A DNA stretch of 57,479 nt from an uncultured Myxococcota bacterium (GTDB taxonomy: Bacteria > Myxococcota_A > UBA796), in assembly GCA_965661045.1 (NCBI GenBank), contig CBFICN010000003.1, positions 1-57,479 on the forward strand, written 5' to 3'. Below are positions 21,849 through 57,479 of the stretch, one piece after another (position 1 is the first letter of the stretch; every line of letters starts with the position of its first letter). Below the pieces are notes generated by a model that had not been told where the DNA came from, searched no databases, and was given only the letters and a program-made list of their open reading frames with translations. Made by a program: the position numbers and the translations under genes.

Positions 21849-23867
21849 TTACCGCGACAATATGTGTGTCTGTTGGTTGTTTCGTGCTCTTCTTCGGTAA
21901 AATGAGTCCATGTACAAGATGTGTGGAAAAGTGATACAGGACCCCGCAATGATGATCCATCCTAAATGAAAGGGCTGTAGAGAGAGTGTCAGTACAAAGA
22001 TTGCACAAAAGAGAAATGCCCCAATCGTCAACGGCAATGCTTCTTGCCACATGGATCGATCAGATAGGGTGATGGCTTCTTTGAGGTGGGTCCACGCTTC
22101 CAAACTGTGTTGCCCAATAAAGTATAGACCGAATGCCATAGGGAGTGGCAACCATGCCGATGCCCACAAAGAGATCGTGGACAAGAACAACTGCACTGAA
22201 CGTGTTTTGAATAGCAAACCCACTTGTAGGAATGCCATGGACAACAACCAGCCAATGGAATTCTGCAGTGGTAGGCTAGAGTGTACCGACAGCAGTTCAA
22301 CAACAATCTGACTGTCTTCAGGATGAGACAGGATGATCCATCCCAACACCGATAGTCCCCATAGAAAAATAGACACTGTATGCTCCGGCAGTTTCCAATG
22401 CTGAAAGTCCGTTTGGCCAAAATGCCAAGCTGAGGTGAGTACAAATACCCCCAAACCAACAGTTGGACTGAGTAGCCACAGTACTGCCATACTTGCAATT
22501 AAACCCCAATAGCGCATGTGAAATGACCCATTCCATCTGGAGACACCTTGTTCGCCAACGGTATGATAATCCAAAGCTCCATGGGGTATGCCAATCGCCA
22601 GCATACCAAGTCCCAACAACACCCAGCCAGCATAGCCAGTATAAATGGGAAACAGTTGGTATAGGACGATCAATACACTCGTTGTCATCAGCAATAGGAT
22701 TGAGGGAGTAAAAAGACGTCTTTGAATTAGAGCCTGTAAAAAAGGTGTCCAAGGCAATCCAGCAAAAATTTCGATCTCTTCCCAAATACTTGTCTGTTGT
22801 CGAAGAAATTTGAGAACTCTGGCAAGCTGTTGGCTTCGAAAAAGTTCTTTAAAGATGTCCTTGCCCAAGTGTGGTTTTGTCATCAAAATGTGAATGAGTA
22901 GATCGTCGTAAAATGTGAATCGTGGCTGGGGGGTAATTGTGGGTTGTCGATCTAGATCCATACAAATTTCTGTTGCGTGTTCGTACATGGTTTCAAACGC
23001 GTAGCCCGTACTGGGTTTGACGGCACCAGCGCGAGATCCAATAGACAGACAATTGGGTAGAGAGGATGGAGTACTCGAATGGATTGACATTGAGATGATG
23101 CCCCGTTCTGTGTTCAGAACCGTAAATGAACCCCATTTTTTCTGTATGTAGTGTTCGAGGTGTTGCTCAGCTCTTTTGGTCTCGATGGGAGCAATTCCAA
23201 ATCGAGTGCACTCAACCAAAGCACGCGTTGAACTTTCCGGAAGAATGTACATAAATTGTGTGGCATCATCCTGTGGAATATCAAAATCCATCAGGGTCAA
23301 AGTGTCCTCTTGGATGTTGGGTTCTGAAAGTTCGATAAAGAATCCAACGAAGGATTGAAGCAACCCTCTTGAAGAATTTGTTGAAGAGGCAAGGGGACGG
23401 CCATCAAAAACTTGTTGGCTGATGATGGTTGTATTGGCAGTATCAATGCGCAAAGACTTGGAGCCTTCTATTGCATCAATCTTTTCTACACTGTCTCGAA
23501 GGATTTGAATGCCATGTTGTCTACACAATCGAGTTGTGGAATCAAACAGTTTTTGACTCTCAATTTGGTAATATTGATTGGGGGCAATGCATTGTTTTGG
23601 AAGTGGAGGTACTTCGGCAAATTTCCAGTGCCGTTGTATGACATCTTGATGCTCCAAGACAATGGGATCGGTCGGAGATGCCCAAAAACACAATGTTTTG
23701 GGTGTGTGTTTGTGTGTTGGCTCCACAATTAATATAGAGTACTGGCTCAAGATCCCACGTCGTTCGAACGCTCGTAGAATCAAGCAAGCTGCGATGCCCA
23801 ATCCACAAAATACAAAATCGTACTCCGGAAGCAAGTCCTGATGAGATGTGGCCTTCGAGGTTGACAT
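21849..23867 (-). CDS. Fusion protein: lycopene beta-cyclase (CrtY/CrtL-type, N-terminal) + beta-carotene 15,15'-dioxygenase (Brp/Blh-type, C-terminal)
   Basis: N-terminal part (about 22712..23867): FAD fold YDFVFCGLGIAAC, FMYILPESSTRALVECTRF, GSRAGAVKPSTGYAF. C-terminal part (about 21852..22711): 7-TM Blh with GIPHGALDY, SAWHFGQTDF, YFIGQHSLEAW. One uninterrupted frame. I prefer the ATG 23867 start because the GTG at 23909 lies inside the upstream terminator stem. Confidence 0.85.
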   Translation of the reverse strand: MSTSKATSHQDLLPEYDFVFCGLGIAACLILRAFERRGILSQYSILIVEPTHKHTPKTLCFWASPTDPIVLEHQDVIQRHWKFAEVPPLPKQCIAPNQYYQIESQKLFDSTTRLCRQHGIQILRDSVEKIDAIEGSKSLRIDTANTTIISQQVFDGRPLASSTNSSRGLLQSFVGFFIELSEPNIQEDTLTLMDFDIPQDDATQFMYILPESSTRALVECTRFGIAPIETKRAEQHLEHYIQKKWGSFTVLNTERGIISMSIHSSTPSSLPNCLSIGSRAGAVKPSTGYAFETMYEHATEICMDLDRQPTITPQPRFTFYDDLLIHILMTKPHLGKDIFKELFRSQQLARVLKFLRQQTSIWEEIEIFAGLPWTPFLQALIQRRLFTPSILLLMTTSVLIVLYQLFPIYTGYAGWVLLGLGMLAIGIPHGALDYHTVGEQGVSRWNGSFHMRYWGLIASMAVLWLLSPTVGLGVFVLTSAWHFGQTDFQHWKLPEHTVSIFLWGLSVLGWIILSHPEDSQIVVELLSVHSSLPLQNSIGWLLSMAFLQVGLLFKTRSVQLFLSTISLWASAWLPLPMAFGLYFIGQHSLEAWTHLKEAITLSDRSMWQEALPLTIGAFLFCAIFVLTLSLQPFHLGWIIIAGSCITFPHILYMDSFYRRRARNNQQTHILSR

Positions 23868-23892
23868 GGAAGTCCATTGCTGAGTGACGTTG

Positions 23893-23927
23893 AGAAAAAA
23901 GAAAACCACCCCAAATGGAGTGGTTTT
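23893..23927 (-). terminator. Rho-independent terminator between the rhodopsin gene and the crtY-blh fusion
   Basis: Minus-strand RNA AAAACCACUCC-AUUU-GGGGUGGUUUU, an 11-bp stem including one G.U with a 4-nt loop, followed by CUUUUUUCU. It starts 18 nt after the rhodopsin TAA. Confidence 0.8.
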
Positions 23928-23945: not shown

Positions 23946-24680
23946 TTATGCTGCTTGTTGTGCGCGAATCTTTTCACTCTCTGCTTTGGCAACGCTGTAT
24001 ACTACGAGACCGAATCCAATCTTGTTGATTGCGTCTGCAATGTTGTATACGATGTTCATTTCAAACATACCGGCCATCCAGTTGTCTGGCATAGTCATGT
24101 AACCAATCGGGTAGATAGACCATCCCAATGTGATGAAGATACCCAACAAGAACATGGCTTGCTTCAACTCAGGAGAGTCACTGGACTGAGAAAGTTTGCG
24201 TACGTCGCCAGCGAATACTTCGTATACGATGTAGGCGTAACCGATTGTTGAAATGAATCCCCAAAGGACAGAGCCACCACCGAGGATTGCAGCTTCACCA
24301 ATGTATCCGGTGACCAACATCCAAACAGAAGCAACGATCAACTTGAAGAGTGTGCTGCCTTTCGCGCCGAATGGTTTTGTGAGAAGATAGAATTCAACAC
24401 ACATCAATGGTACAGTCAAAATCCAGTCGATGTAACGGAATGCTGTGGGAGAAGTTCCAGTTTGAATCCAGAAGTCACGCATGTAGTAGTAGTGCACGCA
24501 TGCAATTCCAGTAATCAACGCAGATACAGTCAATGACAGACGCCACTTACCTTCTACAGAGTTGCGCTCCAGCAAAAAGAATGCTGTTGCAGCCATCATG
24601 GCCATTGTGCCGATGAAAAATGTGAAACCAGTGTAATCTTCTGTTCCAAGATTGCTGGCAGCCAGTAATAAGTTGTTCAT
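23946..24680 (-). CDS. Proteorhodopsin/xanthorhodopsin-type light-driven proton pump
   Basis: 244 aa, 7 TM. RYIDWILTVPLMCVEF gives the D-T-E motif (codons 24426..24428, 24414..24416, 24393..24395). His in CVHYYYM. Schiff-base Lys in YNIADAINKIGFG (24021..24023). GGAG RBS 7 nt upstream. Confidence 0.95.
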   Translation of the reverse strand: MNNLLLAASNLGTEDYTGFTFFIGTMAMMAATAFFLLERNSVEGKWRLSLTVSALITGIACVHYYYMRDFWIQTGTSPTAFRYIDWILTVPLMCVEFYLLTKPFGAKGSTLFKLIVASVWMLVTGYIGEAAILGGGSVLWGFISTIGYAYIVYEVFAGDVRKLSQSSDSPELKQAMFLLGIFITLGWSIYPIGYMTMPDNWMAGMFEMNIVYNIADAINKIGFGLVVYSVAKAESEKIRAQQAA

Positions 24681-40856: not shown

Positions 40857-43800
40857 TTATTGATCCTCTTGAGCACGTTCGAGCGCTTCAATGATGGCGG
40901 GTCGCAACTGCTTAGCCTCAATAATTGCGTCGAGTGAACCAACATCAATTGCCCGTTGAACGCTGTGGATATTGTCAAACTCAGTTGCGATGATGCCACG
41001 TTTCTCCAACGTCAATGTAGTGAGCATTTTGTTGCGTTCTTCTAGCAAAAATGGTTTTTCTGCATTTCGGGCTTCTTGGATTCGCTTGTCCAGTTCGATC
41101 AAGCGTTCATCTTCATTGACCAGCGCTTTGACTTTTCGAGGGAATACGACCGCAGCAGCCGGTGCGCCTCCAATAACAGAGGCAAAGGAACCTTCGACTG
41201 CAATGGCCGTGATATTGGGGTTGAGTGCTTTGGAAAACACCACATAGGCCCCACCGTGATAGCGCCCAATCACGACGAAGACGATCGGTGATGCACAGTT
41301 GACCACTGCGCGTCCAATTTCCGCGCCGTACTCTAGTTGCAATCTGCGCAACGACTCGGGTGAACCATCAAACCCACTGAGATTGGCCAGTACCACGATC
41401 GGCGTTTGTCCACTGGCTGCATTGATGGCGCGCGCAATCTTTTTGGAACTTTGCGGAAATAGGGTACCCCCAGTCCAGGTGTCGGGGCCATCCAAGGGCA
41501 CTCGACCACGCCGCAAGATCGGTTGGGATTCAATTCCAATGACTGTGCTGGAAATCCCTCCAATGTGCGCAGACCACACAATGGCCGATTCTCCTTGGTG
41601 CAGTTGAGCAAAGCGTTCAAGATACTGACTGTCCTGATCAATCAGTGCTTGCATCACTTGACGAATGGCGAACGGCTTTTTTCGTTCTGGGTTGTGCTCT
41701 TTCGAAAAGATATCCCCAATCCGTTTGAAGTAGGGGTGATTCTCATCGGTATAGGGATGTAAGCACACATTTCTATTGGGAGAGTCATTGGTCAACTGTT
41801 TGGGAGATCGACCGGTTTGTGGGTCACAGAAGGTGTGTCGATAAATCTCAAACAAGAGGGCATAGGCCTCTCCCAAATCAGCAACTCGGTATTGGGATTG
41901 TCCGTTTGGTCCCATGATGCGCTCAACACCACCGATGCCACGCTCGTCTTCAGCAGAAACGCCCCCTGAAAAGTCCAGTGCCTTCTTCCCTGTGAGAACC
42001 ATGGCGGCTTGGGTTGTCATAATCAACACCCCTTTGGTGTGCATGAGCATCGTGGCTTCTGCATTCCAGTACGATTGCGCACCCACGTTGATTCCGTGTA
42101 CAATGACGTGAATGACCCCACCTGATTGGGTAAATTGGATGATTCGCTCCAGAACTCGGGCAGTCCAGTCAAGGTTTTCCGTACCGGAGTTCATGGATAT
42201 CATGGCCCCAGCCGAAACAGGGACCCACTCAACAGGAATGCTCAGTTCTAAAGCCAAATCAAGCGCCGCCATAATGCGAGAACACTCTTTTTCTGCCAGT
42301 GACCCCATCGCTTTCGTTGAGTCGGATCCAATCCAAATGCGTTGCATTCCTTGTGGAAATTTACTCGTGGTGTTGTTGATAATTCCTACAACGACACCAC
42401 AATTGTTTTGACCAAAGGGTCTCAACACTGGAACAAACTGACCACTGGAATTGAAGTCGTATTCTTGAAAACGACCGTTTCGCATGTCTGGATGTGGAAT
42501 GTTCAATGCGGTGGGAGACCCTTCAAGCATTCGAATGATTTCATATGGGTAGACGTGTCCAAACTTCTGGGCCCGTACGGCCTTCATATCATAGGTGGAC
42601 ATCGGTGGGATGGCCAGATGGTTGTCGAGCCAGTTGAATTCAAGCTGGTTGTTTCCTGACCGTCGGAGCTGAATGGTCGACCATTGGAATCGACTCGCCC
42701 GGGTTCGTAGGTGCAACTGAACTTCTCTAAGGTTTAAGCCACGCGTGTAGGGCTCTAACTGCTTGGCAAACAGTTGCAGCTCGGCTTCGTTGGTGTCCAA
42801 CTGGGGGTGGATGTGAAAGTAGAGCCAGTTCCACTGCAATCGTGATCGCTTTGTGCGTTGAGACTGTGTACTTCGGATCGCGCGAATGGCTTCAAAAAAT
42901 ACCCGTTCAAAGTGACGCAAGGGAAATGCTGCCCCTTCCGTGGAAGAGCCAAACACCTCGGCCAGCACAAAGATCCGTTCGTCTTTGGCATTGCTGTGGG
43001 CTTGTCCCAAAAACGCATAGATGTGTTCTTGTGAATAAATGCGAGACAGTTTGAACTCTTTGAGCCTTTCTAGTTTCAGTCGACTGGCAACTTGAGGGTG
43101 GATGTCGTTGAGCAAGGTTTGGAAGCGCCATTGTCCCTTTTGATAGACAAAGGTTCGATGGTGCGCCAGTTCGTTGTTCATCCAGGTCAGCGTGATGCGT
43201 TTGGGTTGAATCGGGAGTGTTGTCAGCAGGATGGGGGCTTGTTCAAGCCAAGACTCATCCAGTCCTTGGGGCAGTACAAATTCCAAATAGGTTGCCGGAT
43301 TGATCATCAGTTGCAAAATCTGTAGGATATTGTCTTTTGTGGTGTCGGGTTTGAACAGGATGGACAGGATGCGATCGGACTGGTTGATTTTCCCTTCGAC
43401 CAGAGCGTGCCCCTCTACCTCGGCATCATTTGTCCAAGTGTAGGTCTCCCCAATGTAAAAACGACGCGTCAGCGCTTCAATGATTCGGTGCGGTTGAGCG
43501 CCACTCTGCATTTGATACAGCGTTTGTTGGAGGGCTTGTGGTGATCGGCCAAGTTTCCGCATAACGGTGCGAACCACTTTGCTGTCGGCGTCGTAAGATT
43601 CCATACTCGAAAACATTTCCTGAACGGCTGCGGTTAGGGCTTCCATTTGTCGTCTGTTTTCACCGTGGGCAAAGAACAGGTGGTGGGCATGAATCGCATT
43701 GTCCTGTACATAAGGGTGGTCGGTGTGGGCCGCTTGACCTGTTTTTTCAAGGATGTCTTCAAGTTCTGCCGGTGGAGTCCAGTTGGTTTGGTGTAAGCGG

Positions 43801-46391
43801 ATTACAATGCGCAGCAGTCCAGACGCAACGTGGTGGCGCCAAGTGCTGTTGTCGTTTCCAAGGGCCAATCTAAATAGGGCTTCTTTTAGGTGGGTGTCAT
43901 TCGTTAAGGAGTCGATGTGGTACCAGTGCAAGGCTCTGTTCAACATTTCTTCAACGCATTCCAAGATATTGTCGTCGTGGTGTTGTCGACAGAAGTCATA
44001 AAAGGCTGCATTGGCTGGGATTGTGGTGGTGCTGTCCAGATCCAATAGCAGTGTCCGATCGAGCAATTGTGTAGCGTCCGAGAACATGGATAGGCATTCA
44101 ATAAATCGGTTCCAAATGTTGGGGTGCGCGCAGTCCGATACGGTTGCGGAACTGTCCAATATTTGATCCATCATGTCGCTCATGGTTGGCGTAATGTCAA
44201 AGCCAAGCATGGATGCTCGAAACAAAGCGTGCAACTCTTCCAACACTGTTTCTTGTACTGCGCCTTCGAGCGTATTCAAGCGACTGAGTTCAAGCCGACC
44301 TTCACTCCACAATTCTGCAAATAAAATGCGATTGGGACTTTCAAACCCTTGAGACTCCACACTTTGGTCACTGGATTCATCTTCCAAATCCAAGACGAGT
44401 AAGGCGTCCCCAATCAAGACCTGTTGATTGACTTGACATAGAATCTCTTGTACTGTTCCCGCTTCCGAAGCAAAGACGCCCAGTTCCATCTTCATCGCTT
44501 CAAGTGTACACAAACGATCACCGACGTTGACGGTGTCCCCAGGCGAGACGGAAACACTGACGATGACAGCGGGTGTTGGGGAGCGCACGACACCACCCGA
44601 AGAACGTTCAATGGTGTGGCTGTATCCATCCAATTCAACTGTAATACCAGCACTTCCATAGGAGTAGAGGATTTTATGCCGCTGTTCTCCTACCCACATT
44701 TCAGCAATGTGTGGCGAGATGGTTTTCAACTGAACGCGGTGCAGTTGTTGAGACACTTCCACCACAAAATCATCCATGTCCCAGGCGGCAACCGTCATTG
44801 AGTATTCCATTCCACGGAGCTTCAATTCTACCTCAAATCCTTCGTTGCTGGGGAACTGAACGGGGATACCATCTTGACACTGTTGAAAGAAGCGATCCAT
44901 GTTGACGTGGGTATTTCGCTTGTATTCTAATATTGCTGCTGCGAGAAGTGCTTGCTTTTCTGCGCCGACTCGAACCACAGAACCGGCTGCCATGGCTCGG
45001 TCTAGCCAGTCTGTAGCCGCCGTTGCGTTGACGAATTCTTCGTGTCGCAAAATGTCCAACAGGAAGGCTTGATTGGTTGCGCCATCTTCTACTGCGGCGT
45101 CGAGTTCCAAACAGGCTCTGCGTGCACGGGCAATGCACAATTTTCGCGTCGGTGCCCAAATGATGATTTTGGCAATCATGGAGTCGAAGTGTTCTGAGAT
45201 CGTGGATCCTTCCGTGATACCGCTGTCTACTCGAACACCTGGTCCAGCGGGCGCTCTAAAGATGGCGACGCGTCCTGGAGCTGGACGAAAATCTTGCTCA
45301 GGATCTTCGGCATTGACGCGCAACTCAATGGCGTGTCCATGCACCAATTTGGTGGGGGGAGACCATGTCCAACCTAGGGCTATGGATATTTGAGCTTGTA
45401 CCAAATCGGCACCCGTAATCGCCTCTGTGATGGTGTGCTCCACTTGCAGCCGTGAGTTCACTTCCAAAAATGTGGTGGTTCCACTATTGGGCTCATATAG
45501 AAATTCTGCTGTGGCGACGCCCTTGTATCCACACAGTCTTGCCAATTTCTCCGATGAACGCATCAGCAGTTCACCGACTTCGCTGGGAAGGATTGGGGAA
45601 GGGGCTTCTTCAATCACTTTTTGATTGCGTCGCTGAATGGAGCAGTCTCGGATACCAACGGCGTGTGCAGATGTGTCTGTACATACCAGTTGCACTTCGA
45701 TGTGTCTCGCTTGAGATACACATCGCTCCAGCAGAATTCCCCCTTGACCAAAGAATTTCTCGACTTCGCTGTGCACCGTTTGGACGGTTTCTGCCAACTG
45801 TTCTGGGGCGTTCACTTTGCGAATACCGCGACCACCACCACCTGCTGAGGCTTTGACCATCAGTGGATAGCCAATTCGATTTCCATGCTCAATGAGTTCC
45901 GCATCATTCCAATCGCTTTTGTATTCAGCCCAAGGAGCCAACGGAACCCCAGCTTTCTCCGCCATGTATTTTGCCGCGATTTTGTCTCCCAATTGACTCA
46001 TCGCCTTGGAGGATGGACCCAAGAATACAATATTGTTGGATTCAAGTTTTTCGACGAACAAGGGGTCTTCAGATACAAATCCCCATCCTGGCCAAACTGC
46101 ATCACAGTGATTGGCTTTGAGCAACGCCACAATCCAAGCGTGGTCTAAGTACGCATTGACAGTTTTTCCAGTGGGCAATGTACGCATGATACCACCGATG
46201 CAAATAGCTTCGTCGGCTTGGCGAACGAACGGCATGTGTTCATCTGGCTCTGTATAGAACGCCACCCCTTTGATCGAGGTTCCATGGATTAAGTTGAATT
46301 CCTCGAGGGCTCGAAGAAATCGAACCGCGGGCTCTCCACGATTGATGATGGCAACTTTGGAAAATAACTGTGTCTGCATTGGACTCCCCAT
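40857..46391 (-). CDS. Single-chain multidomain biotin-dependent carboxylase, eukaryote-type acetyl-CoA carboxylase architecture (BC - BCCP - central region - CT)
   Basis: 1844 aa. Biotin carboxylase (VAIINRGEPAVRF, MVKASAGGGGRGIRKV, EEAPSP, EVNSRLQVEHT), TDWLD linker, biotinylation motif CTLEAMKMEL (Lys codon 44490..44492). Roughly 480-aa middle region. Carboxyltransferase (VVVGIINNTTSKFPQG, GARIG-like region, LANLSGFDGSPESL, GRYHGGAYVVF). Confidence 0.9.
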   Translation of the reverse strand: MGSPMQTQLFSKVAIINRGEPAVRFLRALEEFNLIHGTSIKGVAFYTEPDEHMPFVRQADEAICIGGIMRTLPTGKTVNAYLDHAWIVALLKANHCDAVWPGWGFVSEDPLFVEKLESNNIVFLGPSSKAMSQLGDKIAAKYMAEKAGVPLAPWAEYKSDWNDAELIEHGNRIGYPLMVKASAGGGGRGIRKVNAPEQLAETVQTVHSEVEKFFGQGGILLERCVSQARHIEVQLVCTDTSAHAVGIRDCSIQRRNQKVIEEAPSPILPSEVGELLMRSSEKLARLCGYKGVATAEFLYEPNSGTTTFLEVNSRLQVEHTITEAITGADLVQAQISIALGWTWSPPTKLVHGHAIELRVNAEDPEQDFRPAPGRVAIFRAPAGPGVRVDSGITEGSTISEHFDSMIAKIIIWAPTRKLCIARARRACLELDAAVEDGATNQAFLLDILRHEEFVNATAATDWLDRAMAAGSVVRVGAEKQALLAAAILEYKRNTHVNMDRFFQQCQDGIPVQFPSNEGFEVELKLRGMEYSMTVAAWDMDDFVVEVSQQLHRVQLKTISPHIAEMWVGEQRHKILYSYGSAGITVELDGYSHTIERSSGGVVRSPTPAVIVSVSVSPGDTVNVGDRLCTLEAMKMELGVFASEAGTVQEILCQVNQQVLIGDALLVLDLEDESSDQSVESQGFESPNRILFAELWSEGRLELSRLNTLEGAVQETVLEELHALFRASMLGFDITPTMSDMMDQILDSSATVSDCAHPNIWNRFIECLSMFSDATQLLDRTLLLDLDSTTTIPANAAFYDFCRQHHDDNILECVEEMLNRALHWYHIDSLTNDTHLKEALFRLALGNDNSTWRHHVASGLLRIVIRLHQTNWTPPAELEDILEKTGQAAHTDHPYVQDNAIHAHHLFFAHGENRRQMEALTAAVQEMFSSMESYDADSKVVRTVMRKLGRSPQALQQTLYQMQSGAQPHRIIEALTRRFYIGETYTWTNDAEVEGHALVEGKINQSDRILSILFKPDTTKDNILQILQLMINPATYLEFVLPQGLDESWLEQAPILLTTLPIQPKRITLTWMNNELAHHRTFVYQKGQWRFQTLLNDIHPQVASRLKLERLKEFKLSRIYSQEHIYAFLGQAHSNAKDERIFVLAEVFGSSTEGAAFPLRHFERVFFEAIRAIRSTQSQRTKRSRLQWNWLYFHIHPQLDTNEAELQLFAKQLEPYTRGLNLREVQLHLRTRASRFQWSTIQLRRSGNNQLEFNWLDNHLAIPPMSTYDMKAVRAQKFGHVYPYEIIRMLEGSPTALNIPHPDMRNGRFQEYDFNSSGQFVPVLRPFGQNNCGVVVGIINNTTSKFPQGMQRIWIGSDSTKAMGSLAEKECSRIMAALDLALELSIPVEWVPVSAGAMISMNSGTENLDWTARVLERIIQFTQSGGVIHVIVHGINVGAQSYWNAEATMLMHTKGVLIMTTQAAMVLTGKKALDFSGGVSAEDERGIGGVERIMGPNGQSQYRVADLGEAYALLFEIYRHTFCDPQTGRSPKQLTNDSPNRNVCLHPYTDENHPYFKRIGDIFSKEHNPERKKPFAIRQVMQALIDQDSQYLERFAQLHQGESAIVWSAHIGGISSTVIGIESQPILRRGRVPLDGPDTWTGGTLFPQSSKKIARAINAASGQTPIVVLANLSGFDGSPESLRRLQLEYGAEIGRAVVNCASPIVFVVIGRYHGGAYVVFSKALNPNITAIAVEGSFASVIGGAPAAAVVFPRKVKALVNEDERLIELDKRIQEARNAEKPFLLEERNKMLTTLTLEKRGIIATEFDNIHSVQRAIDVGSLDAIIEAKQLRPAIIEALERAQEDQ

Positions 46392-50164: not shown

Positions 50165-51541
50165 TTATTCTCCTTTACCACCCAAGTTTTTTTTTGCCTG
50201 GTTTCGATGGAGCCGTTGTTTGGTGTACTCATATTGATAGAGTGAACCATTCTCATTTCGCCAAAAGGAATCCCCACCTTGACTGCGCCTTTGACTCGTA
50301 AAAACCAGTGAACCTGTTGAGTCCCACGCACCCTTTGCATTGATGAAATAGGGTGTATTCTCTAGATGGGTCATATGGGAAAAGGACTCGGAGGTTTCGA
50401 GCCTCACTGGTTGGGTGAGCACAGAGCCTTGTAGACTGTGTGCATGAATTGAATAGGTCCATTGCTTTGGAGAATCTGATTTGGTCTCCAGGGATTTCTT
50501 GGTCAGTGCAGAAAGGAAAAGCCCGTTCGCATCAGAGACAGCAAACTGCAGGTTTTCAATGGTTGTGTCTTTGGAGGTTTGAAGGATGCGGGTGCTTTTG
50601 GGTGGCAGGCTGTCCACCTGTGGGTTGCCAGTTTCGGTTACGGAGAGTAGCCAAGCTTCACGGTCGGTCGACAGGGCAATGAGTGGCGTACCGGCTTGAC
50701 TGATACCGGTTGTGTATTGTGTGGGTTTCGACCCTGTATAGAGTTTTCGAAAAGAGACGGCTCCCTGTGGCGTGGCCCTCAACAGGTAGAGTGTGCCGAC
50801 GTCTTTTCCAGCAATCCAAAGTGGCAGTAGAAATCGTCCGTTGGCGTCGGTGATGGCTTGGCCAATCAGATGGACTGTATTGGCGGGCCAAGGAATGGCG
50901 GCTTGCAGTGGGGGTTCCAGTCTGTCTCTCGCTGCAGGCACAATCGTCAAGGATTGTCCTTGCAACCAATACAGGTGGTGATGCAGTCCAAGGTGGGCAC
51001 TGGTGCCAAACTGTGCATCGTTCCCAATGCTGGCGATGTAGTGTGGGAGTTCGAATCCTTTGAACAGGTGGTGTTCAGGCGTTGTCCAAAGTATGGTGTC
51101 TAAGGGGGTGAACAGAGCGTTTTCCAGTCCAACTGCATCAACGCCATCAAAGGTCTTAGGGTGAACGATGATGGTTTGCTCAAATGGCACTTCGTTCAAG
51201 GGGGTTTGGATTGCAAATTGTATCGTTCCGGTAGTCCAAGCAGCGGAATTGGGTACTTCAAATCGAAACTCTTTGAGTCCTCTGGATGCGATCGAGACAG
51301 TTGCTGGTGAGGCATCGTCTGGCTTGCTTGAGTGAATATGTTGTGTCCCAGTCGATGTTTGAATTTGAAACTCTACTTGCCATCGTTGCTTGCCAATATC
51401 GGGAACTTTTTCGGTTTGCGGACCGTCATTGAACAGTTGAAGGTCTATGTAGAACTTTTCGCCCGCAATGTGGTGGGTGGGCACAGAGTGGGTGATGACA
51501 ACATCGGCGTGTGCCATTGTCGAGAGAATTAGGGGGAGCAT
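50165..51541 (-). CDS. Hypothetical secreted protein (beta-rich)
   Basis: I prefer ATG 51541 (AAGGAAAA RBS; signal MLPLILSTMAHA). Overlaps the cca stop by 13 nt. Lys-rich C-terminus. Confidence 0.5.
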   Translation of the reverse strand: MLPLILSTMAHADVVITHSVPTHHIAGEKFYIDLQLFNDGPQTEKVPDIGKQRWQVEFQIQTSTGTQHIHSSKPDDASPATVSIASRGLKEFRFEVPNSAAWTTGTIQFAIQTPLNEVPFEQTIIVHPKTFDGVDAVGLENALFTPLDTILWTTPEHHLFKGFELPHYIASIGNDAQFGTSAHLGLHHHLYWLQGQSLTIVPAARDRLEPPLQAAIPWPANTVHLIGQAITDANGRFLLPLWIAGKDVGTLYLLRATPQGAVSFRKLYTGSKPTQYTTGISQAGTPLIALSTDREAWLLSVTETGNPQVDSLPPKSTRILQTSKDTTIENLQFAVSDANGLFLSALTKKSLETKSDSPKQWTYSIHAHSLQGSVLTQPVRLETSESFSHMTHLENTPYFINAKGAWDSTGSLVFTSQRRSQGGDSFWRNENGSLYQYEYTKQRLHRNQAKKNLGGKGE

Positions 51542-52767
51542 ATATTTTCCTTGACCCAAGCAAGGGCACTTTCTTTGCTGTGTAATCTTTCGTGTAATTG
51601 TTCGGTTCGCACTTTGTCTATCCAAACACCAATGTCCGGACCTTTCAATCCAAGTGCAATCAAGTCTTTTCCAGAAATCAAACGTGGCAGTGGGGTGGTC
51701 AGTCCTCGGCTCAAAGCACTTTGTCTATTTTGTGCAGCGATTTCACCTTCAGTCCCTTCGACGATGGAGGCTACATCACACAGGAATTGGATGTCAAAAA
51801 TATCACTGCAGATATTTTGGGTGATGGTGCTGTGATCGGAGGTGAGCAAAGGGGTGGCAAGGTTGGTTCCCAGAATGGCCTCTTTGACTGGAAAGCCCAT
51901 GAAGCGTTCGATGCTCAGCGCGTCCAACAAAGCGAGTGTTTCGTCTTTTGAAAGAGGATGGGTCAACAGCGCTAAAAACAGTCCCATGCTGCGTCCAGGG
52001 TTGTTGGGGGCTCGAAGTCTGGCGCCCCGTCTGCAAGATTCAACGATGCACTCTTTATCTGCTTTGCTTAGCGAAGCGTATTGTGGAAAATAGTTGGGCA
52101 TTGCGTTGAGTTCAAACAGCCATTCAACTGCCACATGTGGTTCTGGACTTTTCATCCAAGCTTTTTGCAATTCAACCCACACGCGCTCTTTGGGAAGGCG
52201 TACAAAGTCTGGGTGTTGGACCAATGTATGACACAAGGTTTGGAGACTTGCATCCACAGTGCACGAAAGTCGACCGGCAAATTGACAGACTCGAAACACC
52301 CGCAACAAGTCTTGGGCAAAATATTTCACGTCTGTGGCCCGCAACACCTTGTTTTCTAAGTCGGTCAACCCATTGAAGGGGTCGACGAGTTGTTGCGTCT
52401 CTATGTGAATCAACATTGAATTGATGGTGAGGTCTCTTCTTCGACAGGCTTCCTCCACTCCCACAAAGGGCGTCGGTTCATCGAGCAGTTTTGGAAGTGC
52501 AACATCGACTTCGAGTTCATCACCGTGTTGAGGCAAGAGTTTCCACACCCCAAAACTTTTTCCGACCTTTCGAAAGGGGGGGAACCGATAGAGAATGTCT
52601 ACAAGTTGCTCCGTCGTCAACCCGTGGACTTCTACGTCAATGTCCTTGGAGTCAATTCCCAGTAGGTGGTCTCGAACACTTCCACCTGTCACATACACAT
52701 CTCCGCCGGCTTTGCTGACGGCCTTGGAGAAGTGCAGAACTTTGTCTGGCAGAGAAATTTCTGTCAT
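51529..52767 (-). CDS. cca: CCA-adding enzyme (tRNA nucleotidyltransferase, class II)
   Basis: 412 aa. VYVTGGSVRDHLLGIDSKDIDVEV, RRDLTINSM, C-terminal HD-like region. Confidence 0.85.
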   Translation of the reverse strand: MTEISLPDKVLHFSKAVSKAGGDVYVTGGSVRDHLLGIDSKDIDVEVHGLTTEQLVDILYRFPPFRKVGKSFGVWKLLPQHGDELEVDVALPKLLDEPTPFVGVEEACRRRDLTINSMLIHIETQQLVDPFNGLTDLENKVLRATDVKYFAQDLLRVFRVCQFAGRLSCTVDASLQTLCHTLVQHPDFVRLPKERVWVELQKAWMKSPEPHVAVEWLFELNAMPNYFPQYASLSKADKECIVESCRRGARLRAPNNPGRSMGLFLALLTHPLSKDETLALLDALSIERFMGFPVKEAILGTNLATPLLTSDHSTITQNICSDIFDIQFLCDVASIVEGTEGEIAAQNRQSALSRGLTTPLPRLISGKDLIALGLKGPDIGVWIDKVRTEQLHERLHSKESALAWVKENICSP

Positions 52768-53975
52768 GGTTTGATCTCCAAATGGGGGGGTAAACTAAAT
52801 CGAAGTTCAGAGCAACCGTAGGTACTCGGGGTCAGTCGAATGACAGTGTGCAGTGGGATTGAAAGACGGGGCACTTCTGCTTTGTTGTGGTTCATAAAAT
52901 AGCCGTAAATGACACGCAGGATTGCTTGATGGGCAACCACCAAAACGGGTTTGGAACGGTGCTCGAGTGCTAGAATAATGGGTTCCACGCGGCGAATGAC
53001 GTCTTCATAAGATTCTCCTTGTGGATAGCGATAGCGGAGTTTGTCGCTTGCACGTCCTTCAGCCACACTGGGGTGCTGCTGGGCAATTTCTTCATAGGTG
53101 AGGTTGTCGCACAGACCGGCATGGATTTCGTCGAGTATTTTCCAGCGTTGAATCGGTCGGCCCAATCTAGACGCCGTTTGCACCGTGCGGACCAGGGTGC
53201 TTGTCCACACCTCTTCAACCTCCACATCTTGCATGAAGTCGCTGAGAGAATTGGCATATCGTCGACCGTTGGGGCTGAGACTGGAATCTCCTCCAACTCG
53301 ATTTTGGGTGTTGTAGATGCTTTGTCCGTGTCGAGTAAGCCAGATTTTGGTGGGGACCAAGTTTAACTGCGAGACCAAATGGGCGACTTTAATGAGAATC
53401 GGACCCGATATTCGATGGAGTACGACTTTTCGTCCAGCGTCGATGATCTTGATCCACGGTGTGGGACCGTCTTGAAGGGGTTCGTAGGAACTCACATAGT
53501 GGGCAATGCGGGCTTTAAAGTCGGCTATCGCATCGTCTTTGGAACTGTGAACATAGTCTGGTGAAGTCAGTTTGCTTTGGGCGATGTTGGTGTCAATGAT
53601 GCTCTCGTCTTCGCAGATCGATTCAATAAACGCGCAGTGTATCCCGCGACGCCCCAACTGTTCCAATAGCCATTGTCTGCGTACTGTTGTACTGTTGGTT
53701 GCATCAAAAACAGCAACCTCTCCACCTTGGTTTAACCACTCAATCATATCGGTCAGGGCAGATTGTGCGGCTTGATGGCGAGCCTTGACCCCTTCTTCAT
53801 TAGTCGGCGAGAAAAAGTGATGGGGGACATCGGCACCACTTTGTTGGCGCCTGTAATTTCCGACGTTGAACACTTTGCTTCGATAACCAAGCCAGTCTAG
53901 GTGTCGAGCGATACGTCGGGCGGTGTAGGTCTTACCACGCGCGGGCAGGCCAACCATAATCAGGGCAGCAGACAT
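52764..53975 (-). CDS. Bifunctional 6-phosphofructo-2-kinase / fructose-2,6-bisphosphatase-like protein (eukaryote-type)
   Basis: 403 aa. IMVGLPARGKTYTARRIARHLDWLGYRSKVFNVGNYRR closely parallels animal PFKFB N-termini. Histidine-phosphatase domain WLTRHGQSIYN ... VVAHQAILR. ATGA overlap with cca, TGATG overlap with the helicase. Confidence 0.8.
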   Translation of the reverse strand: MSAALIMVGLPARGKTYTARRIARHLDWLGYRSKVFNVGNYRRQQSGADVPHHFFSPTNEEGVKARHQAAQSALTDMIEWLNQGGEVAVFDATNSTTVRRQWLLEQLGRRGIHCAFIESICEDESIIDTNIAQSKLTSPDYVHSSKDDAIADFKARIAHYVSSYEPLQDGPTPWIKIIDAGRKVVLHRISGPILIKVAHLVSQLNLVPTKIWLTRHGQSIYNTQNRVGGDSSLSPNGRRYANSLSDFMQDVEVEEVWTSTLVRTVQTASRLGRPIQRWKILDEIHAGLCDNLTYEEIAQQHPSVAEGRASDKLRYRYPQGESYEDVIRRVEPIILALEHRSKPVLVVAHQAILRVIYGYFMNHNKAEVPRLSIPLHTVIRLTPSTYGCSELRFSLPPHLEIKP

Positions 53976-56392
53976 CAGTCGTTGTTCCGGTTTTGAAGGT
54001 TCTTTGTTCGTCGTTTTTTGCGGCGTTGTTTCTTTCGGTGTTCGTTTTCGGATGGGGAGGTATCATCCGACCAAATTCCCATGGCTTTGCAAATCTTGGT
54101 GCTCTCGGTCTTAGACAGTCCCAATTTGGAGCAGATGGCATTGAGTTGGAGTGGATTGCTGTGCTTCCAACGGATTCCGTCAATGACATCGGCCCGTACA
54201 ATGTACCCAGCATATTGATAATACCCAAGTGACTTCGCCATCCCTTTGGGCCATGTTGCTTTGACACAGACTCGATGCTCAGGCAGTGCTGGCAACAGTT
54301 GTATCGAGTTCCACAGACCGTACAACACAAACCGCAACAGTTGGTGTTTGGATTTGTAGATGTCTCGATGGTACATGTGGTGTCGACCACAGACAATAGC
54401 AATTTTACCGAGTTGTTTGCGCAACTTGGTATTGGGTCTGGTTTGTCTGGTCAGGTGTAGCGTTCCCAGATTTTGTCTCAGTTCGTAGCGTGTTTCTCGA
54501 GTGGACGCATCTTCTCTCTGATAAATGGAGAACAATTGTTTGATTTGGCTTTGTACCCAGCCCAGAACGGTCATTTCTATCTGTCGCTTTTGTTTGGCAT
54601 CCAATAGATCCATAGAACGCAGTCGAATATTGGGTTCTCGAATTGTTTTTCCTTTGGACAATTGGGCCATCGGTCTATCGTCATAGCAGATTTGAAATTC
54701 TGCATTGATGGTCCAGTGATTGCGTTGCAAAATTTGACGGTATACACCTTGAGCAGTTTCATGGAAATGTTGTCTACCCAATGCTCGAACGGTCTGGAAG
54801 CCAAACCGACCTTGGGCTGCAGCACTGGGTATGAAAGAGAGCGCTTCAAGCACCCCTAGTCGCATGGTGCGACACCACAACTCATCGTTTTCAACGTACA
54901 CATCTTCTGGTGTGGAGCGTTTTTGAACGTGACCCATCTCATCGATAAATCGTTCTGTCAACCGCTCGTGCACCGTCTGGGAAAGTTTGTTTTCCAAATC
55001 CTTTAAATAGGGGTGCCATTTGTCTGTGTTGGCCAGCCAATCAGGTCGTTGTGAGATGTAATTCCACGTTCGAATCTTGGCCATGTTCGACAACAGTTTG
55101 GGAATGTCCCCTGCTAGGTTCTGGAGTTTTTCGAGCTCGCGCCTTACCCACAACTGAGACAGTTCTCCTTCCTCGATGAGTTGTAGAAATATCTTTTTGG
55201 TGAGTCGAAAGTGGTGTGCATGGCTTTGACCGGCGTAGTCCGGAATTCGAGCGACCGACCACAGGAGTTTTAAGTTTTCAGATCGATGACAGAGTGTGAC
55301 AACCTTGTCGTCTTTGAGCAAATAATTCATTGTCAATTCATCGAGTGCTTCACGTTGTGGAATGAGGCGCCCTGAAAAAGGACGTTTTTGTAAGGTGTCC
55401 CAAAAACGATCCAAACTTTCGAAAGAAATGTCTGAGTTGCGGTAGTATATTTTGCGAACGGGCGCAAAAACTTGCTCTTCGATGGCTTGGACCGCTGTGT
55501 CTGACAGCCCCCCTTGAGTTGCAGCATCTGTCGAAAGGTTAAAGGTTCCACCCTGCTTGAATCGACCGGCTCTGCCCGCAATTTGGCCAATTTCTCCAAG
55601 TCGTAGATATCGATAGTCTCGTCCGTCAAACTTGCGCAGTGACGCAAAGCATACATGTCGGATGTCCAAGTTCAACCCCAATCCGATTGCGTCTGTGGCA
55701 ATCAAGGTGTCCACTTTGCCACTTTGGAACAGTTCTACTTGCGCATTTCTCGACTGTGGGGACATCGCACCCATGACCAGTGCCACGCCGCCTTTGGCGA
55801 TGCGCATGCGATCGGCCAGTTCATAGAGGTGGGTAATGTTGAAGGAGACGATGGCTGTTCTTTTGGGCAGTGCGGACAGTCTCTTGGGCTGTACATACCT
55901 CAAGGGGCTCATTCGTTTTGACTGTTGAATTTGTACTGTGGGCACCAAGGTCTCTAAGATGTCAATCATGGTATCGGAACCGAGGAACCAAGTCTCGACT
56001 GTGCCACGTGCGTTGAGAATTCTGTCGGTAAAAATGTGTCCTCGTTTTGGGTGGGTGGCCAATTGGATTTCATCCACCACGACAATTGGGACGGTAATGT
56101 CAGAGGGCATCGACTCAACGGTACAGACGTAGTATCGGGGTCGGTTTGGAACAATTCTCTCTTCACCAGTGAGGAGTGCGACATCTCGAACGTGGGTTTC
56201 TTGAACCAACTTTTCATAGACTTCCCTCGCGAGAAGGCGAAGTGGCAAACCAATGATGCCGCGTTTGAGTTCGAGCATGCGTTTCAATGCGCGATGGGTT
56301 TTGCCAGTGTTGGTCGGACCAAGATCGGCAAAGATTAGTGAGCCGTTGTTGGCCTGCCCCCATTTTCCAAACTTTCCAGCCATCGCATACAC
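53975..56392 (-). CDS. Suv3 (SUPV3L1)-like ATP-dependent RNA helicase with basic C-terminal tail
   Basis: 805 aa. ADLGPTNTGKTHRAL...GLPLRLLAREVYEK (motif I region as in Suv3), VVDEIQL, ATDAIGLGLN, QIAGRAGR. Tail ENEHRKKQRRKKRRTKNLQNRNND. Confidence 0.8.
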   Translation of the reverse strand: MYAMAGKFGKWGQANNGSLIFADLGPTNTGKTHRALKRMLELKRGIIGLPLRLLAREVYEKLVQETHVRDVALLTGEERIVPNRPRYYVCTVESMPSDITVPIVVVDEIQLATHPKRGHIFTDRILNARGTVETWFLGSDTMIDILETLVPTVQIQQSKRMSPLRYVQPKRLSALPKRTAIVSFNITHLYELADRMRIAKGGVALVMGAMSPQSRNAQVELFQSGKVDTLIATDAIGLGLNLDIRHVCFASLRKFDGRDYRYLRLGEIGQIAGRAGRFKQGGTFNLSTDAATQGGLSDTAVQAIEEQVFAPVRKIYYRNSDISFESLDRFWDTLQKRPFSGRLIPQREALDELTMNYLLKDDKVVTLCHRSENLKLLWSVARIPDYAGQSHAHHFRLTKKIFLQLIEEGELSQLWVRRELEKLQNLAGDIPKLLSNMAKIRTWNYISQRPDWLANTDKWHPYLKDLENKLSQTVHERLTERFIDEMGHVQKRSTPEDVYVENDELWCRTMRLGVLEALSFIPSAAAQGRFGFQTVRALGRQHFHETAQGVYRQILQRNHWTINAEFQICYDDRPMAQLSKGKTIREPNIRLRSMDLLDAKQKRQIEMTVLGWVQSQIKQLFSIYQREDASTRETRYELRQNLGTLHLTRQTRPNTKLRKQLGKIAIVCGRHHMYHRDIYKSKHQLLRFVLYGLWNSIQLLPALPEHRVCVKATWPKGMAKSLGYYQYAGYIVRADVIDGIRWKHSNPLQLNAICSKLGLSKTESTKICKAMGIWSDDTSPSENEHRKKQRRKKRRTKNLQNRNND

Positions 56393-56428
56393 TCCTTACT
56401 GTTGGGCTGCTTGAAGACCGTCATGGAG

Positions 56429-57479
56429 TCACTTACGTCGCCCTTTGGGCTTAGAGCGAGTTTTGGATTTGTGGTGAGAATCTGGCTTCCGACGCTTTTG
56501 GGACTTCTTTGGACCTTTGCTTTTGGCTTTGGTCATCGGTTTGTGCGGCGCCCCAGTAGAAGGGGGATAGACCTCGTGCACCCACTTTCGATACTCCTCA
56601 AAGCGGCCCTCAACAATGCTCTGTCGCATGTCCGCCATAAATTTGGCAAACCACGTTAGGTTGTGAATTGTGGCTAAGGTTGCACTGAGTATCTCTCCAA
56701 TTTTGAACAAGTGGTGCAGGTAGGCTCGGGTAAAATTGCTGCATGTATAGCAAGTACAAGATGTATCTACAGCATACATGTCATTCTTGTATCGAGAGTC
56801 TGTCAGACGCATTCGCCCTTGAGAGGTATAGAACATACCAGAGCGAGAGTGGCGGGTTTGAATGACGCAGTCAAACATGTCGACACCACGAGCAACACCT
56901 TCGACCAGGTCGATTGGTCGTCCCACTCCCATCAGGTACCGTGGATGTTCTGGTGGCATATAAGGTGTGGTAAAGTCGAGAATCTCACACATGATTTGGT
57001 GACCTTCTCCCACCGACAATCCGCCAATGGCATAGCCGTCGAACCCAATGTCGGTGATTTGTTTCACAGAGCGTTTGCGCAAGTCTTCAAAGAAGCCACC
57101 CTGTACAATCCCAAACAAACTTTGATCGGGTCTTTCGTGGACATCTTTGCACCGTTGTTCCCACCGAGCGGTTCTGTCGACAGAGGCAGCTGTTTCTTTT
57201 TTGTCTGCACCATAGGGGAGGCACTCATCAAATACCATGGCGATGTCGCTGCCCAGTGCTTGCTGAATTTCCATGGACACTTCGGGGGATAAAAATGTTT
57301 TGCGTCCATCCACCTCATATTGAAACGTCACACCGTCTTCAGTGACCGTTTTGGGCAAGGAAAAGACTTGAAACCCACCAGAGTCGGTCAAAATAGGATG
57401 CTCTACATACATAATTTTGTGCAGTCCACCATGCTTGGCGACCAGACGATGTCCCGGGCGTTGAGACAGGTGGTAGGTG
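56429..57479 (-). CDS. tgt: tRNA-guanine transglycosylase (N-terminus runs off the right edge) with Lys/Arg-rich C-terminal extension
   Basis: The frame stays open to the window edge (…YHLSQRPGHRLVAKHGGLHKIMYVEHPILTDSGGFQVFSL). GIVQGG, GYAIGGLSVGE, Zn motif CTCYTCSNFTRAYLHHL. Tail KPMTKAKSKGPKKSQKRRKPDSHHKSKTRSKPKGRRK. Confidence 0.9.
   Translation of the reverse strand, partial: TYHLSQRPGHRLVAKHGGLHKIMYVEHPILTDSGGFQVFSLPKTVTEDGVTFQYEVDGRKTFLSPEVSMEIQQALGSDIAMVFDECLPYGADKKETAASVDRTARWEQRCKDVHERPDQSLFGIVQGGFFEDLRKRSVKQITDIGFDGYAIGGLSVGEGHQIMCEILDFTTPYMPPEHPRYLMGVGRPIDLVEGVARGVDMFDCVIQTRHSRSGMFYTSQGRMRLTDSRYKNDMYAVDTSCTCYTCSNFTRAYLHHLFKIGEILSATLATIHNLTWFAKFMADMRQSIVEGRFEEYRKWVHEVYPPSTGAPHKPMTKAKSKGPKKSQKRRKPDSHHKSKTRSKPKGRRK

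Follow-up and report, generated by a model that had tools for sequence, protein, structure and literature searches.

A core-only PFK-2/FBPase-2 family protein, probably bifunctional, encoded beside RNA-metabolism genes in a marine lineage of Myxococcota

The stretch of DNA analysed here, a contig segment of 57,479 nucleotides from an uncultured Myxococcota bacterium (GenBank assembly GCA_965661045.1, contig CBFICN010000003.1) and referred to throughout as the window, carries on its minus strand a gene, pfk2, whose product passes every test of sequence and predicted structure that was run for the 6-phosphofructo-2-kinase/fructose-2,6-bisphosphatase (PFK-2/FBPase-2) family. Judged by homology, pfk2 is likely to encode a genuine and probably fully bifunctional enzyme of this family, which would both make and remove fructose-2,6-bisphosphate (Fru-2,6-P2). 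The regulation of phosphofructokinase (PFK) by this metabolite has been described as apparently specific to eukaryotes (2026 preprint, PMC12873801). In the following sections we describe the gene, the predicted active sites of its product and its genomic surroundings, and weigh the explanations that compete with a Fru-2,6-P2 enzyme.

The pfk2 gene and its product

The gene and the domains and motifs of its product lie at the following positions of the window:

52764..53975, minus strand: pfk2 (PFK-2/FBPase-2), 403 amino acids (aa), catalytic core only
53382..53966, minus strand: 6PF2K kinase domain, aa 4-198 (Pfam PF01591, E 8e-67, 225 bits)
53928-53951, minus strand: Walker A motif GLPARGKT, aa 9-16, in the kinase domain
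52809..53345, minus strand: histidine-phosphatase (FBPase-2) domain, aa 211-389 (Pfam PF00300, His_Phos_1, E 2e-39)
53325-53333, minus strand: RHG motif R215-H216-G217, in the phosphatase domain

A first, sequence-only reading of this DNA had proposed an N-terminus resembling animal PFKFB kinases followed by a histidine phosphatase, and had quoted two peptides, VGLPARGKTYTARRIARHLDWLGYRSKVFNVGNYRR and RHGQSIYN. Both peptides are contained in the pfk2 open reading frame (ORF), and the proposal is borne out by the Pfam domains, which place an N-terminal 6PF2K domain and a C-terminal branch-1 histidine phosphatase on a single polypeptide, as is characteristic of the PFKFB family. Among all PDB sequences, the top match is human PFKFB3 (E 5e-111, aa 4-389), accompanied by rat testis and human liver PFK-2/FBPase-2 and by PFKFB2 (E 5e-111 to 1e-103), and the protein is collinear with the PFKFB1-4 structures over aa 4-389. 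Identity to human PFKFB3 amounts to 44% over 391 aa (BLASTP), and the phosphatase domain taken separately matches the FBPase-2 domain of the rat liver enzyme (1c7z/1fbt, E 5e-57). As a sequence match, this resemblance to PFKFB is far beyond chance.

Only three residues precede the first beta-strand of the kinase domain, and about 14 follow the last conserved strand, the PFKFB alignment spanning aa 4-389 of 403; regulatory N- or C-terminal extensions are therefore absent from the protein. In contrast to animal PFKFB1-4, it lacks the N-terminal segment of about 35 aa and the C-terminal tail, and hence the known phosphorylation switches. The homologues from Myxococcota have 395-433 aa. The protein is thus a bare catalytic core, without the tails which bear the phosphorylation switches of the animal, yeast and plant enzymes. 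In their absence, it would fall to metabolites and to the level of expression to set the balance between the two activities.

Active sites and predicted fold

The residues which bind ATP, fructose-6-phosphate (Fru-6-P) and Fru-2,6-P2 in PFKFB3 were mapped onto the pfk2 product and its 120 best homologues, and for the bisphosphatase side we take the roles of the residues to be those of the rat liver enzyme. All 27 mapped catalytic and substrate-binding residues of PFKFB3 are identical in the query, with 14 in the kinase domain (G9, G14, K15, T16, R42, R43, R66, D91, T93, R99, N130, K135, R156 and Y160) and 13 in the phosphatase domain (R215, H216, G217, N222, E283, Y294, R308, K312, R316, Y323, H349, Q350 and R354). 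On the kinase side, the list and numbering of which follow PMC3177832, the catalytic and ATP-binding residues K47, T48, D124 and K168 of PFKFB3 correspond to K15, T16, D91 and K135, and its Fru-6-P pocket (R74, R75, R98, T126, R132, R189 and Y193) corresponds to R42, R43, R66, T93, R99, R156 and Y160. On the phosphatase side, the catalytic triad of the liver enzyme (H258, H392 and E327) is found as H216, H349 and E283, and its phosphate sites for Fru-2,6-P2 (R257, N264, R307, Y338, R352, K356, R360, Y367, Q393 and R397) are all matched, by R215, N222, R263, Y294, R308, K312, R316, Y323, Q350 and R354. Nearly all of the 27 residues are invariant among the 120 homologues, and most of the mapped columns are likewise invariant in a 27-sequence alignment spanning the myxobacterial family.

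A 28th position, at which the query differs from PFKFB3, is occupied by Ser302 in PFKFB3 and by Arg263 in the query. The weak phosphatase activity for which PFKFB3 is known has been associated with this serine, and the other PFKFB isoforms presumably carry an arginine there. Since the query has Arg263 at this position, its bisphosphatase is expected to be active.

An AlphaFold model of the protein as a monomer, computed with the 27-sequence alignment as input, reaches a pLDDT of 93.8 and a pTM of 0.90. It superposes on whole PFKFB2/3 chains (5HTK, 2AXN and 1BIF) with a TM score of 0.92-0.95 and a root-mean-square deviation (rmsd) of 1.4-2.2 A, from which it follows that the two domains would be packed as in the animal enzymes. 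Domain order, fold, packing and all checked residues are therefore shared with animal PFKFB1-4 (2AXN, 1BIF, 1K6M, 5HTK), from which the query differs in its bacterial host, its operon context and the lack of a known downstream receptor. The sequence-only reading had preferred a genuine Fru-2,6-P2 enzyme and had proposed the binding residues for Fru-6-P and Fru-2,6-P2 as a check; with every checked residue intact and a PFKFB fold predicted, this preference is well supported.

By analogy with these enzymes, the N-terminal P-loop domain would move the gamma-phosphate of ATP to O2 of Fru-6-P, thereby forming Fru-2,6-P2, and the C-terminal histidine phosphatase would strip that phosphate again via a phospho-His216 intermediate, with E283 acting as acid/base.

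The surrounding gene run

The gene is part of a run of co-oriented genes, which comprises, in the direction of transcription:

56429..57479, minus strand: tgt, tRNA-guanine transglycosylase (Pfam TGT, E 4e-119; TIGR00430 above cut-off)
53975..56392, minus strand: Suv3-like DEXQ-box RNA helicase (suv3), 805 aa (Pfam DEXQc_Suv3, E 2e-28, and Helicase_C)
53973..53977, minus strand: TGATG junction, in which the helicase TGA (53977-53975) and the pfk2 ATG (53975-53973) share one base
52764..52767, minus strand: ATGA junction of 4 nt, in which the pfk2 TGA (52766-52764) overlaps the nucleotidyltransferase ATG (52767-52765)
51529..52767, minus strand: class II nucleotidyltransferase (CCA-adding/A-adding/poly(A) polymerase family; cca), 412 aa (Pfam PolyA_pol head, E 9e-17)
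50165..51541, minus strand: conserved downstream ORF, last gene of the run, no Pfam match

The first gene, tgt, has a reading frame open to the end of the window, its N-terminus being missing, and is separated from the helicase gene by 36 nt (56393-56428). The helicase gene lies immediately upstream of pfk2; the best PDB matches of its product are 6f4a_B, deposited as Suv3 helicase (E 3e-40), and human SUPV3L1 (E 5e-31), and the motifs GPTNTGKT and DEIQ are visible in the alignment. The best PDB match of the nucleotidyltransferase is the CCA-adding enzyme 6ibp (E 2e-19), and searches of Pfam, NCBIfam and PDB detected no HD domain in it. The label cca, as given by the sequence-only reading, stands at the level of the family owing to the PolyA_pol head, but not as a specific assignment, since the NCBIfam CCA and PcnB models all score far below their cut-offs; we keep it as a short name. 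The downstream ORF probably starts at the ATG at 51541 with the signal-peptide-like N-terminus MLPLILSTMAHA..., and its homologues follow cca in the related loci L001, L002, L004, L010, L018 and L019.

The co-oriented run with its gap after tgt, and the overlaps of the pfk2 start with the helicase stop and of the pfk2 stop with the next start, had all been described correctly. The further claim that the last four genes are joined by overlapping stop and start codons holds for the helicase, pfk2 and nucleotidyltransferase genes, but not for cca and the downstream ORF (486 aa in its longest form), which instead overlap by about 13 nt when counted from the likely ATG at 51541 and by 97 nt for the longest ORF. 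Translational coupling, which had also been claimed, and co-transcription may be inferred from the overlapping codons, which are themselves real in the sequence, and pfk2 is very likely co-transcribed with the helicase gene. A scan for promoters and terminators gave no more hits than shuffled sequence; on the minus strand, it returned a single weak terminator-like hit inside pfk2. With genes on the same strand, overlapping or abutting codons and no terminator signal above that background, tgt-suv3-pfk2-cca probably forms an operon.

Both tgt and the helicase gene encode proteins which end in low-complexity tails rich in lysine and arginine (K/R), namely ...KAKSKGPKKSQKRRKPDSHHKSKTRSKPKGRRK in Tgt (56429-56545, minus strand) and ...ENEHRKKQRRKKRRTKNLQNRNND in the Suv3-like helicase (53975-54060, minus strand). 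We know of no such tail on Tgt, and these tails might add non-specific RNA binding.

Synteny across relatives

In order to place this arrangement, 96 related loci were compared by tblastn and precomputed gene calls. Within the subclade of the query (56-96% identity), suv3 lies directly upstream of pfk2 and on the same strand in 10 of the 12 loci (the window, L001, L002, L004, L018, L010, L011, L019, L003 and L013), with the junction overlapping in L003 (ATGA) and L013 and abutting in L010. The two others are looser, with an opposite-strand ORF of 206 aa between suv3 and pfk2 at the P0022 locus and four genes (5 kb) in L012. Only loci of at least 65% identity have a nucleotidyltransferase gene behind pfk2, and at 56-60% identity cca is found upstream on the opposite strand, in the order cca-, PP2C-, tgt+, suv3+, pfk2+.

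Outside the subclade, 39 loci of at most 55% identity have at least 3 kb of flanking sequence. Only one of them, L009, has suv3 nearby: in this locus, which belongs to the other subclade of Myxococcota, suv3 and pfk2 are convergent and about 0.7 kb apart, with an ORF of 178 aa between them. When the 311 flanking ORFs of these 39 loci were clustered, no neighbour of pfk2 recurred in more than three loci, and the few that did recur look like spurious high-GC ORFs. Synteny with suv3 and cca in relatives, which the sequence-only reading had named as a check, is thus limited to one subclade and becomes looser in the more divergent loci. The tgt-suv3-pfk2 arrangement is real, yet particular to one lineage.

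Two further neighbours were noted in the course of this comparison. In relatives of 56-65% identity, a gene for a PP2C-type phosphatase lies divergently just upstream of tgt (L010 2646-4142, L013 2759-4285 and the P0022 locus); the matching position falls beyond the end of the window. Myxococcota are rich in Ser/Thr kinases, and it is pure speculation that this neighbour matters for the regulation of an enzyme without tails. A gene for 3-deoxy-D-arabino-heptulosonate 7-phosphate (DAHP) synthase adjoins pfk2 in two unrelated contexts, as a class 2 enzyme on a deltaproteobacterial metagenome-assembled genome (MAG; L017 9282-10607) and as a class 1 enzyme on a virus-like contig (L015 3554-4684), which is probably a coincidence.

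We favour the view that, in the marine subclade, pfk2 settled directly behind the Suv3-like helicase gene in a tgt-suv3-pfk2(-cca) run, and that this placement would reflect lineage-specific genome organisation, possibly with co-regulation alongside growth-related housekeeping genes, and not a shared RNA substrate. The RNA-operon context probably carries little mechanistic meaning.

The alternative that survives best, albeit with a small probability, is a functional coupling to RNA metabolism without any RNA chemistry, in which the protein would still be a Fru-2,6-P2 enzyme, either associated with the helicase as in a degradosome or co-regulated with it. Such a coupling would account for the overlapping or abutting suv3-pfk2 junction, which is kept from 96% to 56% identity while the downstream genes change, for the distance of 0.8-5 kb at which suv3 remains in the two looser loci, and for the convergent suv3 in L009. 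It also has a precedent in the glycolytic enzymes of bacterial degradosomes: the abstract of PMC8152036 places enolase and phosphofructokinase in a degradosome-like network of Bacillus subtilis, and that of PMC5289998 lists glycolytic enzymes among degradosome components. As in these cases, which include enolase in Escherichia coli and enolase and PfkA in B. subtilis, a protein of carbon metabolism would be tied to an RNA helicase and decay machinery; whereas the association is physical and experimentally shown for the degradosome enzymes, it consists of gene adjacency in a single clade for the query. Moreover, 38 of the 39 more distant loci have no RNA gene beside pfk2, the linkage is lost with increasing divergence in the manner of neutral synteny, and the linked loci all belong to one well-supported clade and may represent a single evolutionary event. 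In its most specific form, to which we give a slightly lower probability still, Fru-2,6-P2 would be a working signal in Myxococcota, and the enzyme of the marine lineage would dock on the Suv3-like helicase or share its regulon. If true, carbon status would set RNA decay and tRNA maturation.

Candidate receptors of Fru-2,6-P2

The sequence-only reading had pointed to a nearby phosphofructokinase as the possible target of Fru-2,6-P2:

46506..47570, plus strand: PfkA, ATP-type, 354 aa, single-domain; proposed target, probably outside the system

The gene does lie at this position, near pfk2. Its product can be aligned with either half of human PFKP, one at a time, and retains the residues for Fru-6-P binding and catalysis. 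In eukaryotes, the Fru-2,6-P2 site sits in the duplicated C-terminal half of PFK-1, and since PfkA has no second half, it would lack an equivalent of this site; no duplicated PFK-1 with a Fru-2,6-P2 activator site was found in the window, in which PfkA is the sole PFK. The E. coli-type effector residues for ADP and phosphoenolpyruvate (PEP) are mostly replaced (R21V, R25K, R54P, R154S and K213N), and the Mg-ATP ligand D103 is changed to Asn (GGNGS). These residues suggest that the protein is probably regulated in a manner unlike E. coli PfkA; the changes in effector residues are curious, but say nothing direct about Fru-2,6-P2. Finally, pfkA lies less than 10 kb from pfk2 only in relatives of 86% identity or more. 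PfkA was rejected as a target, and the earlier suggestion is left unsupported.

The class I fructose-1,6-bisphosphatase (FBPase) of E. coli is said to be inhibited by Fru-2,6-P2, reportedly in work by Marcus et al. from 1984. By analogy, an FBPase of this class may be a likelier receptor than a single-domain PfkA. No gene for a class I FBPase was found in the window.

Several points weigh against a genuine Fru-2,6-P2 enzyme of the kind favoured here. Our literature search found no report in which Fru-2,6-P2 was measured in a bacterium, and no known Fru-2,6-P2 receptor was identified within the window. That the suv3-pfk2 junction still occurs at 56% identity, and that the distant L009 has a convergent suv3, exceeds what a random neighbour would show and makes some functional tie to RNA metabolism conceivable. 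Conserved residues, moreover, prove neither that the two activities are balanced nor that fructose phosphates are the sole substrates.

In a further alternative, fold and residues are kept and the role differs: the protein would be effectively monofunctional or act on another sugar bisphosphate, and there would be no Fru-2,6-P2 signalling. It would fit with the lack of an identified Fru-2,6-P2-responsive target and of regulatory tails, and monofunctional derivatives of the PFK-2/FBPase-2 family do occur in eukaryotes, among them Pfk26/Fbp26 of yeast and TIGAR-like proteins. Neither active site is incomplete, however, including the Arg263 that PFKFB3 is without, and both are under strong purifying selection across the 120 homologues, which makes this alternative rather improbable.

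RNA-end chemistry

As a second and admittedly speculative possibility, the sequence-only reading had considered that RNA or nucleotide ends are the direct substrates of the kinase and phosphatase, which would form a module like that of polynucleotide kinase-phosphatase (Pnkp) together with the helicase and the CCA enzyme. Like the Pnkp enzymes of RNA repair, the pfk2 product fuses a P-loop kinase to a phosphatase and is encoded near RNA-processing genes, with an RNA helicase gene on one side and that of a class II nucleotidyltransferase on the other, the latter enzyme being without a detectable HD phosphohydrolase domain; in addition, the kinase domain has a weak secondary Pfam match to AAA_33 (29 bits, as opposed to 225 bits for 6PF2K). 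However, the types of both domains differ, in that a 6PF2K kinase with an intact sugar-phosphate pocket is joined to a histidine phosphatase, and there is neither a ligase nor a Hen1 partner. To our knowledge, the phosphatases of known Pnkp proteins are HAD-type or calcineurin-type enzymes (metallophosphoesterases) and not histidine phosphatases. The residues with which PFKFB3 binds fructose ring and 6-phosphate are all kept, on the kinase side (R42, R43, R66, T93, R99, R156 and Y160) as well as among the sugar residues of the phosphatase side (Y294, R308, K312, R316, Y323, Q350 and R354), and they are invariant or nearly so also in family members without RNA neighbours. The close superposition of the model on PFKFB (rmsd 1.4-2.2 A) likewise argues against an RNA-end enzyme, as does the absence of the synteny from most of the family: among the 39 loci outside the subclade, no family-wide association with partners of RNA repair or processing was found. 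A direct action on RNA ends, for which the protein itself offers no support, is very improbable, and is largely refuted by the pattern of residue conservation.

Distribution, origin and residency

The nearest homologues of pfk2 (86-96% identity) are found on contigs of uncultured marine Myxococcota MAGs, and at 50-55% identity follow the proteins of Polyangium, Minicystis, Byssovorax and Sandaracinaceae; all of the nearest homologues, of 49-96% identity, lie on contigs labelled Myxococcota or Deltaproteobacteria. The proteins of these four myxobacterial groups belong to the same family, have 395-430 aa and share the same invariant residues. Unlike the query, which falls into a separate subclade, their genes stand alone, with no conserved neighbours and no linkage to tgt, suv3 or cca. 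NCBI already names some myxobacterial homologues '6-phosphofructo-2-kinase/fructose-2,6-bisphosphatase' and others 'bifunctional nucleoside/nucleotide kinase/histidine phosphatase family protein'. What is new here is a bacterial member of a known family, whose myxobacterial proteins are already annotated in sequence databases; our literature search found no paper linking PFK-2/FBPase-2 to myxobacteria, judged by title for the two papers in which both are named and whose titles are unrelated, nor one pairing the name of the enzyme with 'Myxococc*'.

In a pattern scan of JGI metagenome contigs, at least 585 relatives of pfk2 were found (585 of 600 among the matches listed). Among 1.84 billion cluster representatives, 1087 clusters matched at E <= 1e-30, most of them long proteins, and those clusters which carry a source name are eukaryotic or myxobacterial. 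One bacterial exception to a system otherwise confined to eukaryotes is noted in the literature, namely Desulfovibrio desulfuricans (PMC9721465, with reference to Rider et al., 2004); in contrast to such a lone prokaryotic case, the present family is phylum-wide in Myxococcota. The earlier statement that bacterial homologues are rare is therefore overstated, given that they are widespread in this phylum, and holds only in the sense that the nameable hits fall in one phylum.

The GC content of pfk2 (0.51), its GC content at third codon positions (GC3; 0.52) and its codon usage match those of the surrounding genes. Because its composition matches and its orthologues lie on Myxococcota contigs, the gene can be regarded as resident and old in the phylum. 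In a neighbour-joining (NJ) tree of 172 sequences, the subclade of the query has a bootstrap support of 100/100, all core Myxococcota group together with 44/100, and a sister relation to a group with a Phytophthora protein receives 3/100. The closest relatives outside the myxobacteria are eukaryotic, for example from Phytophthora and Volvox. The myxobacterial genes could record an ancient exchange with early eukaryotes, and the eukaryotic regulator might even stem from Myxococcota; with the low support of the deep nodes (44/100 and 3/100), such a transfer between domains may have run in either direction.

The 44% identity to animal enzymes and these eukaryotic relatives might speak for contaminating eukaryotic DNA, a chimeric assembly or a transfer from a eukaryote in very recent times. 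Such an origin is extremely improbable and is refuted by composition and conserved context, since pfk2 overlaps bacterial genes on both sides, recurs in the same arrangement in at least nine independent assemblies, matches its neighbours in composition and has its nearest homologues on Myxococcota and Deltaproteobacteria contigs.

A second bacterial lineage was considered in the P0229 cluster, marine proteins of 408-414 aa, and was rejected, as its contigs carry the RNA polymerase subunit Rpb5, a mitochondrial-carrier protein, a villin headpiece and a GT25 glycosyltransferase and are therefore of giant-virus or eukaryotic origin. Two such Rpb5-bearing marine contigs encode a core-only PFK-2/FBPase-2 of 408 aa (L015 4743-5969 and L016 4097-5323) and probably belong to a giant virus or picoeukaryote. 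NCBI assigns one member of the cluster to Methylobacterium, apparently in error.

Other genes in the window

Several genes elsewhere in the window were noted as observations in their own right. A gene for a microbial rhodopsin (23946-24680, minus strand; Bac_rhodopsin, E 3e-41) adjoins a single ORF which fuses a lycopene cyclase and a beta-carotene 15,15'-dioxygenase (21849-23909, minus strand); judged from their sequences, the two would form a compact retinal-plus-rhodopsin unit for light harvesting in a marine Myxococcota genome. At 40857-46391 (minus strand), a single chain of 1844 aa unites the biotin carboxylase, BCCP, ACC_central region and carboxyltransferase of an acetyl-CoA carboxylase, the synteny of which with pfkA is kept in L002, L004 and L018. 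Fused enzymes of this kind are associated with eukaryotes and some actinobacteria, the usual bacterial enzyme being multi-subunit. Lastly, an ORF at 5134-6876 (plus strand) matches the TMEM260-like protein O-mannosyltransferase family (E 1e-08), a eukaryote-associated type.

Implications

An intact enzyme consisting of the core only, present across a phylum with culturable members, makes the bacterial use of Fru-2,6-P2 testable. The same holds for the questions of what senses Fru-2,6-P2 when the activator site of eukaryotic PFK-1 is absent, and of how the Fru-2,6-P2 system moved between bacteria and eukaryotes. Furthermore, a tail-less bacterial enzyme would lend itself well to use as a minimal model for the catalytic core of PFKFB.

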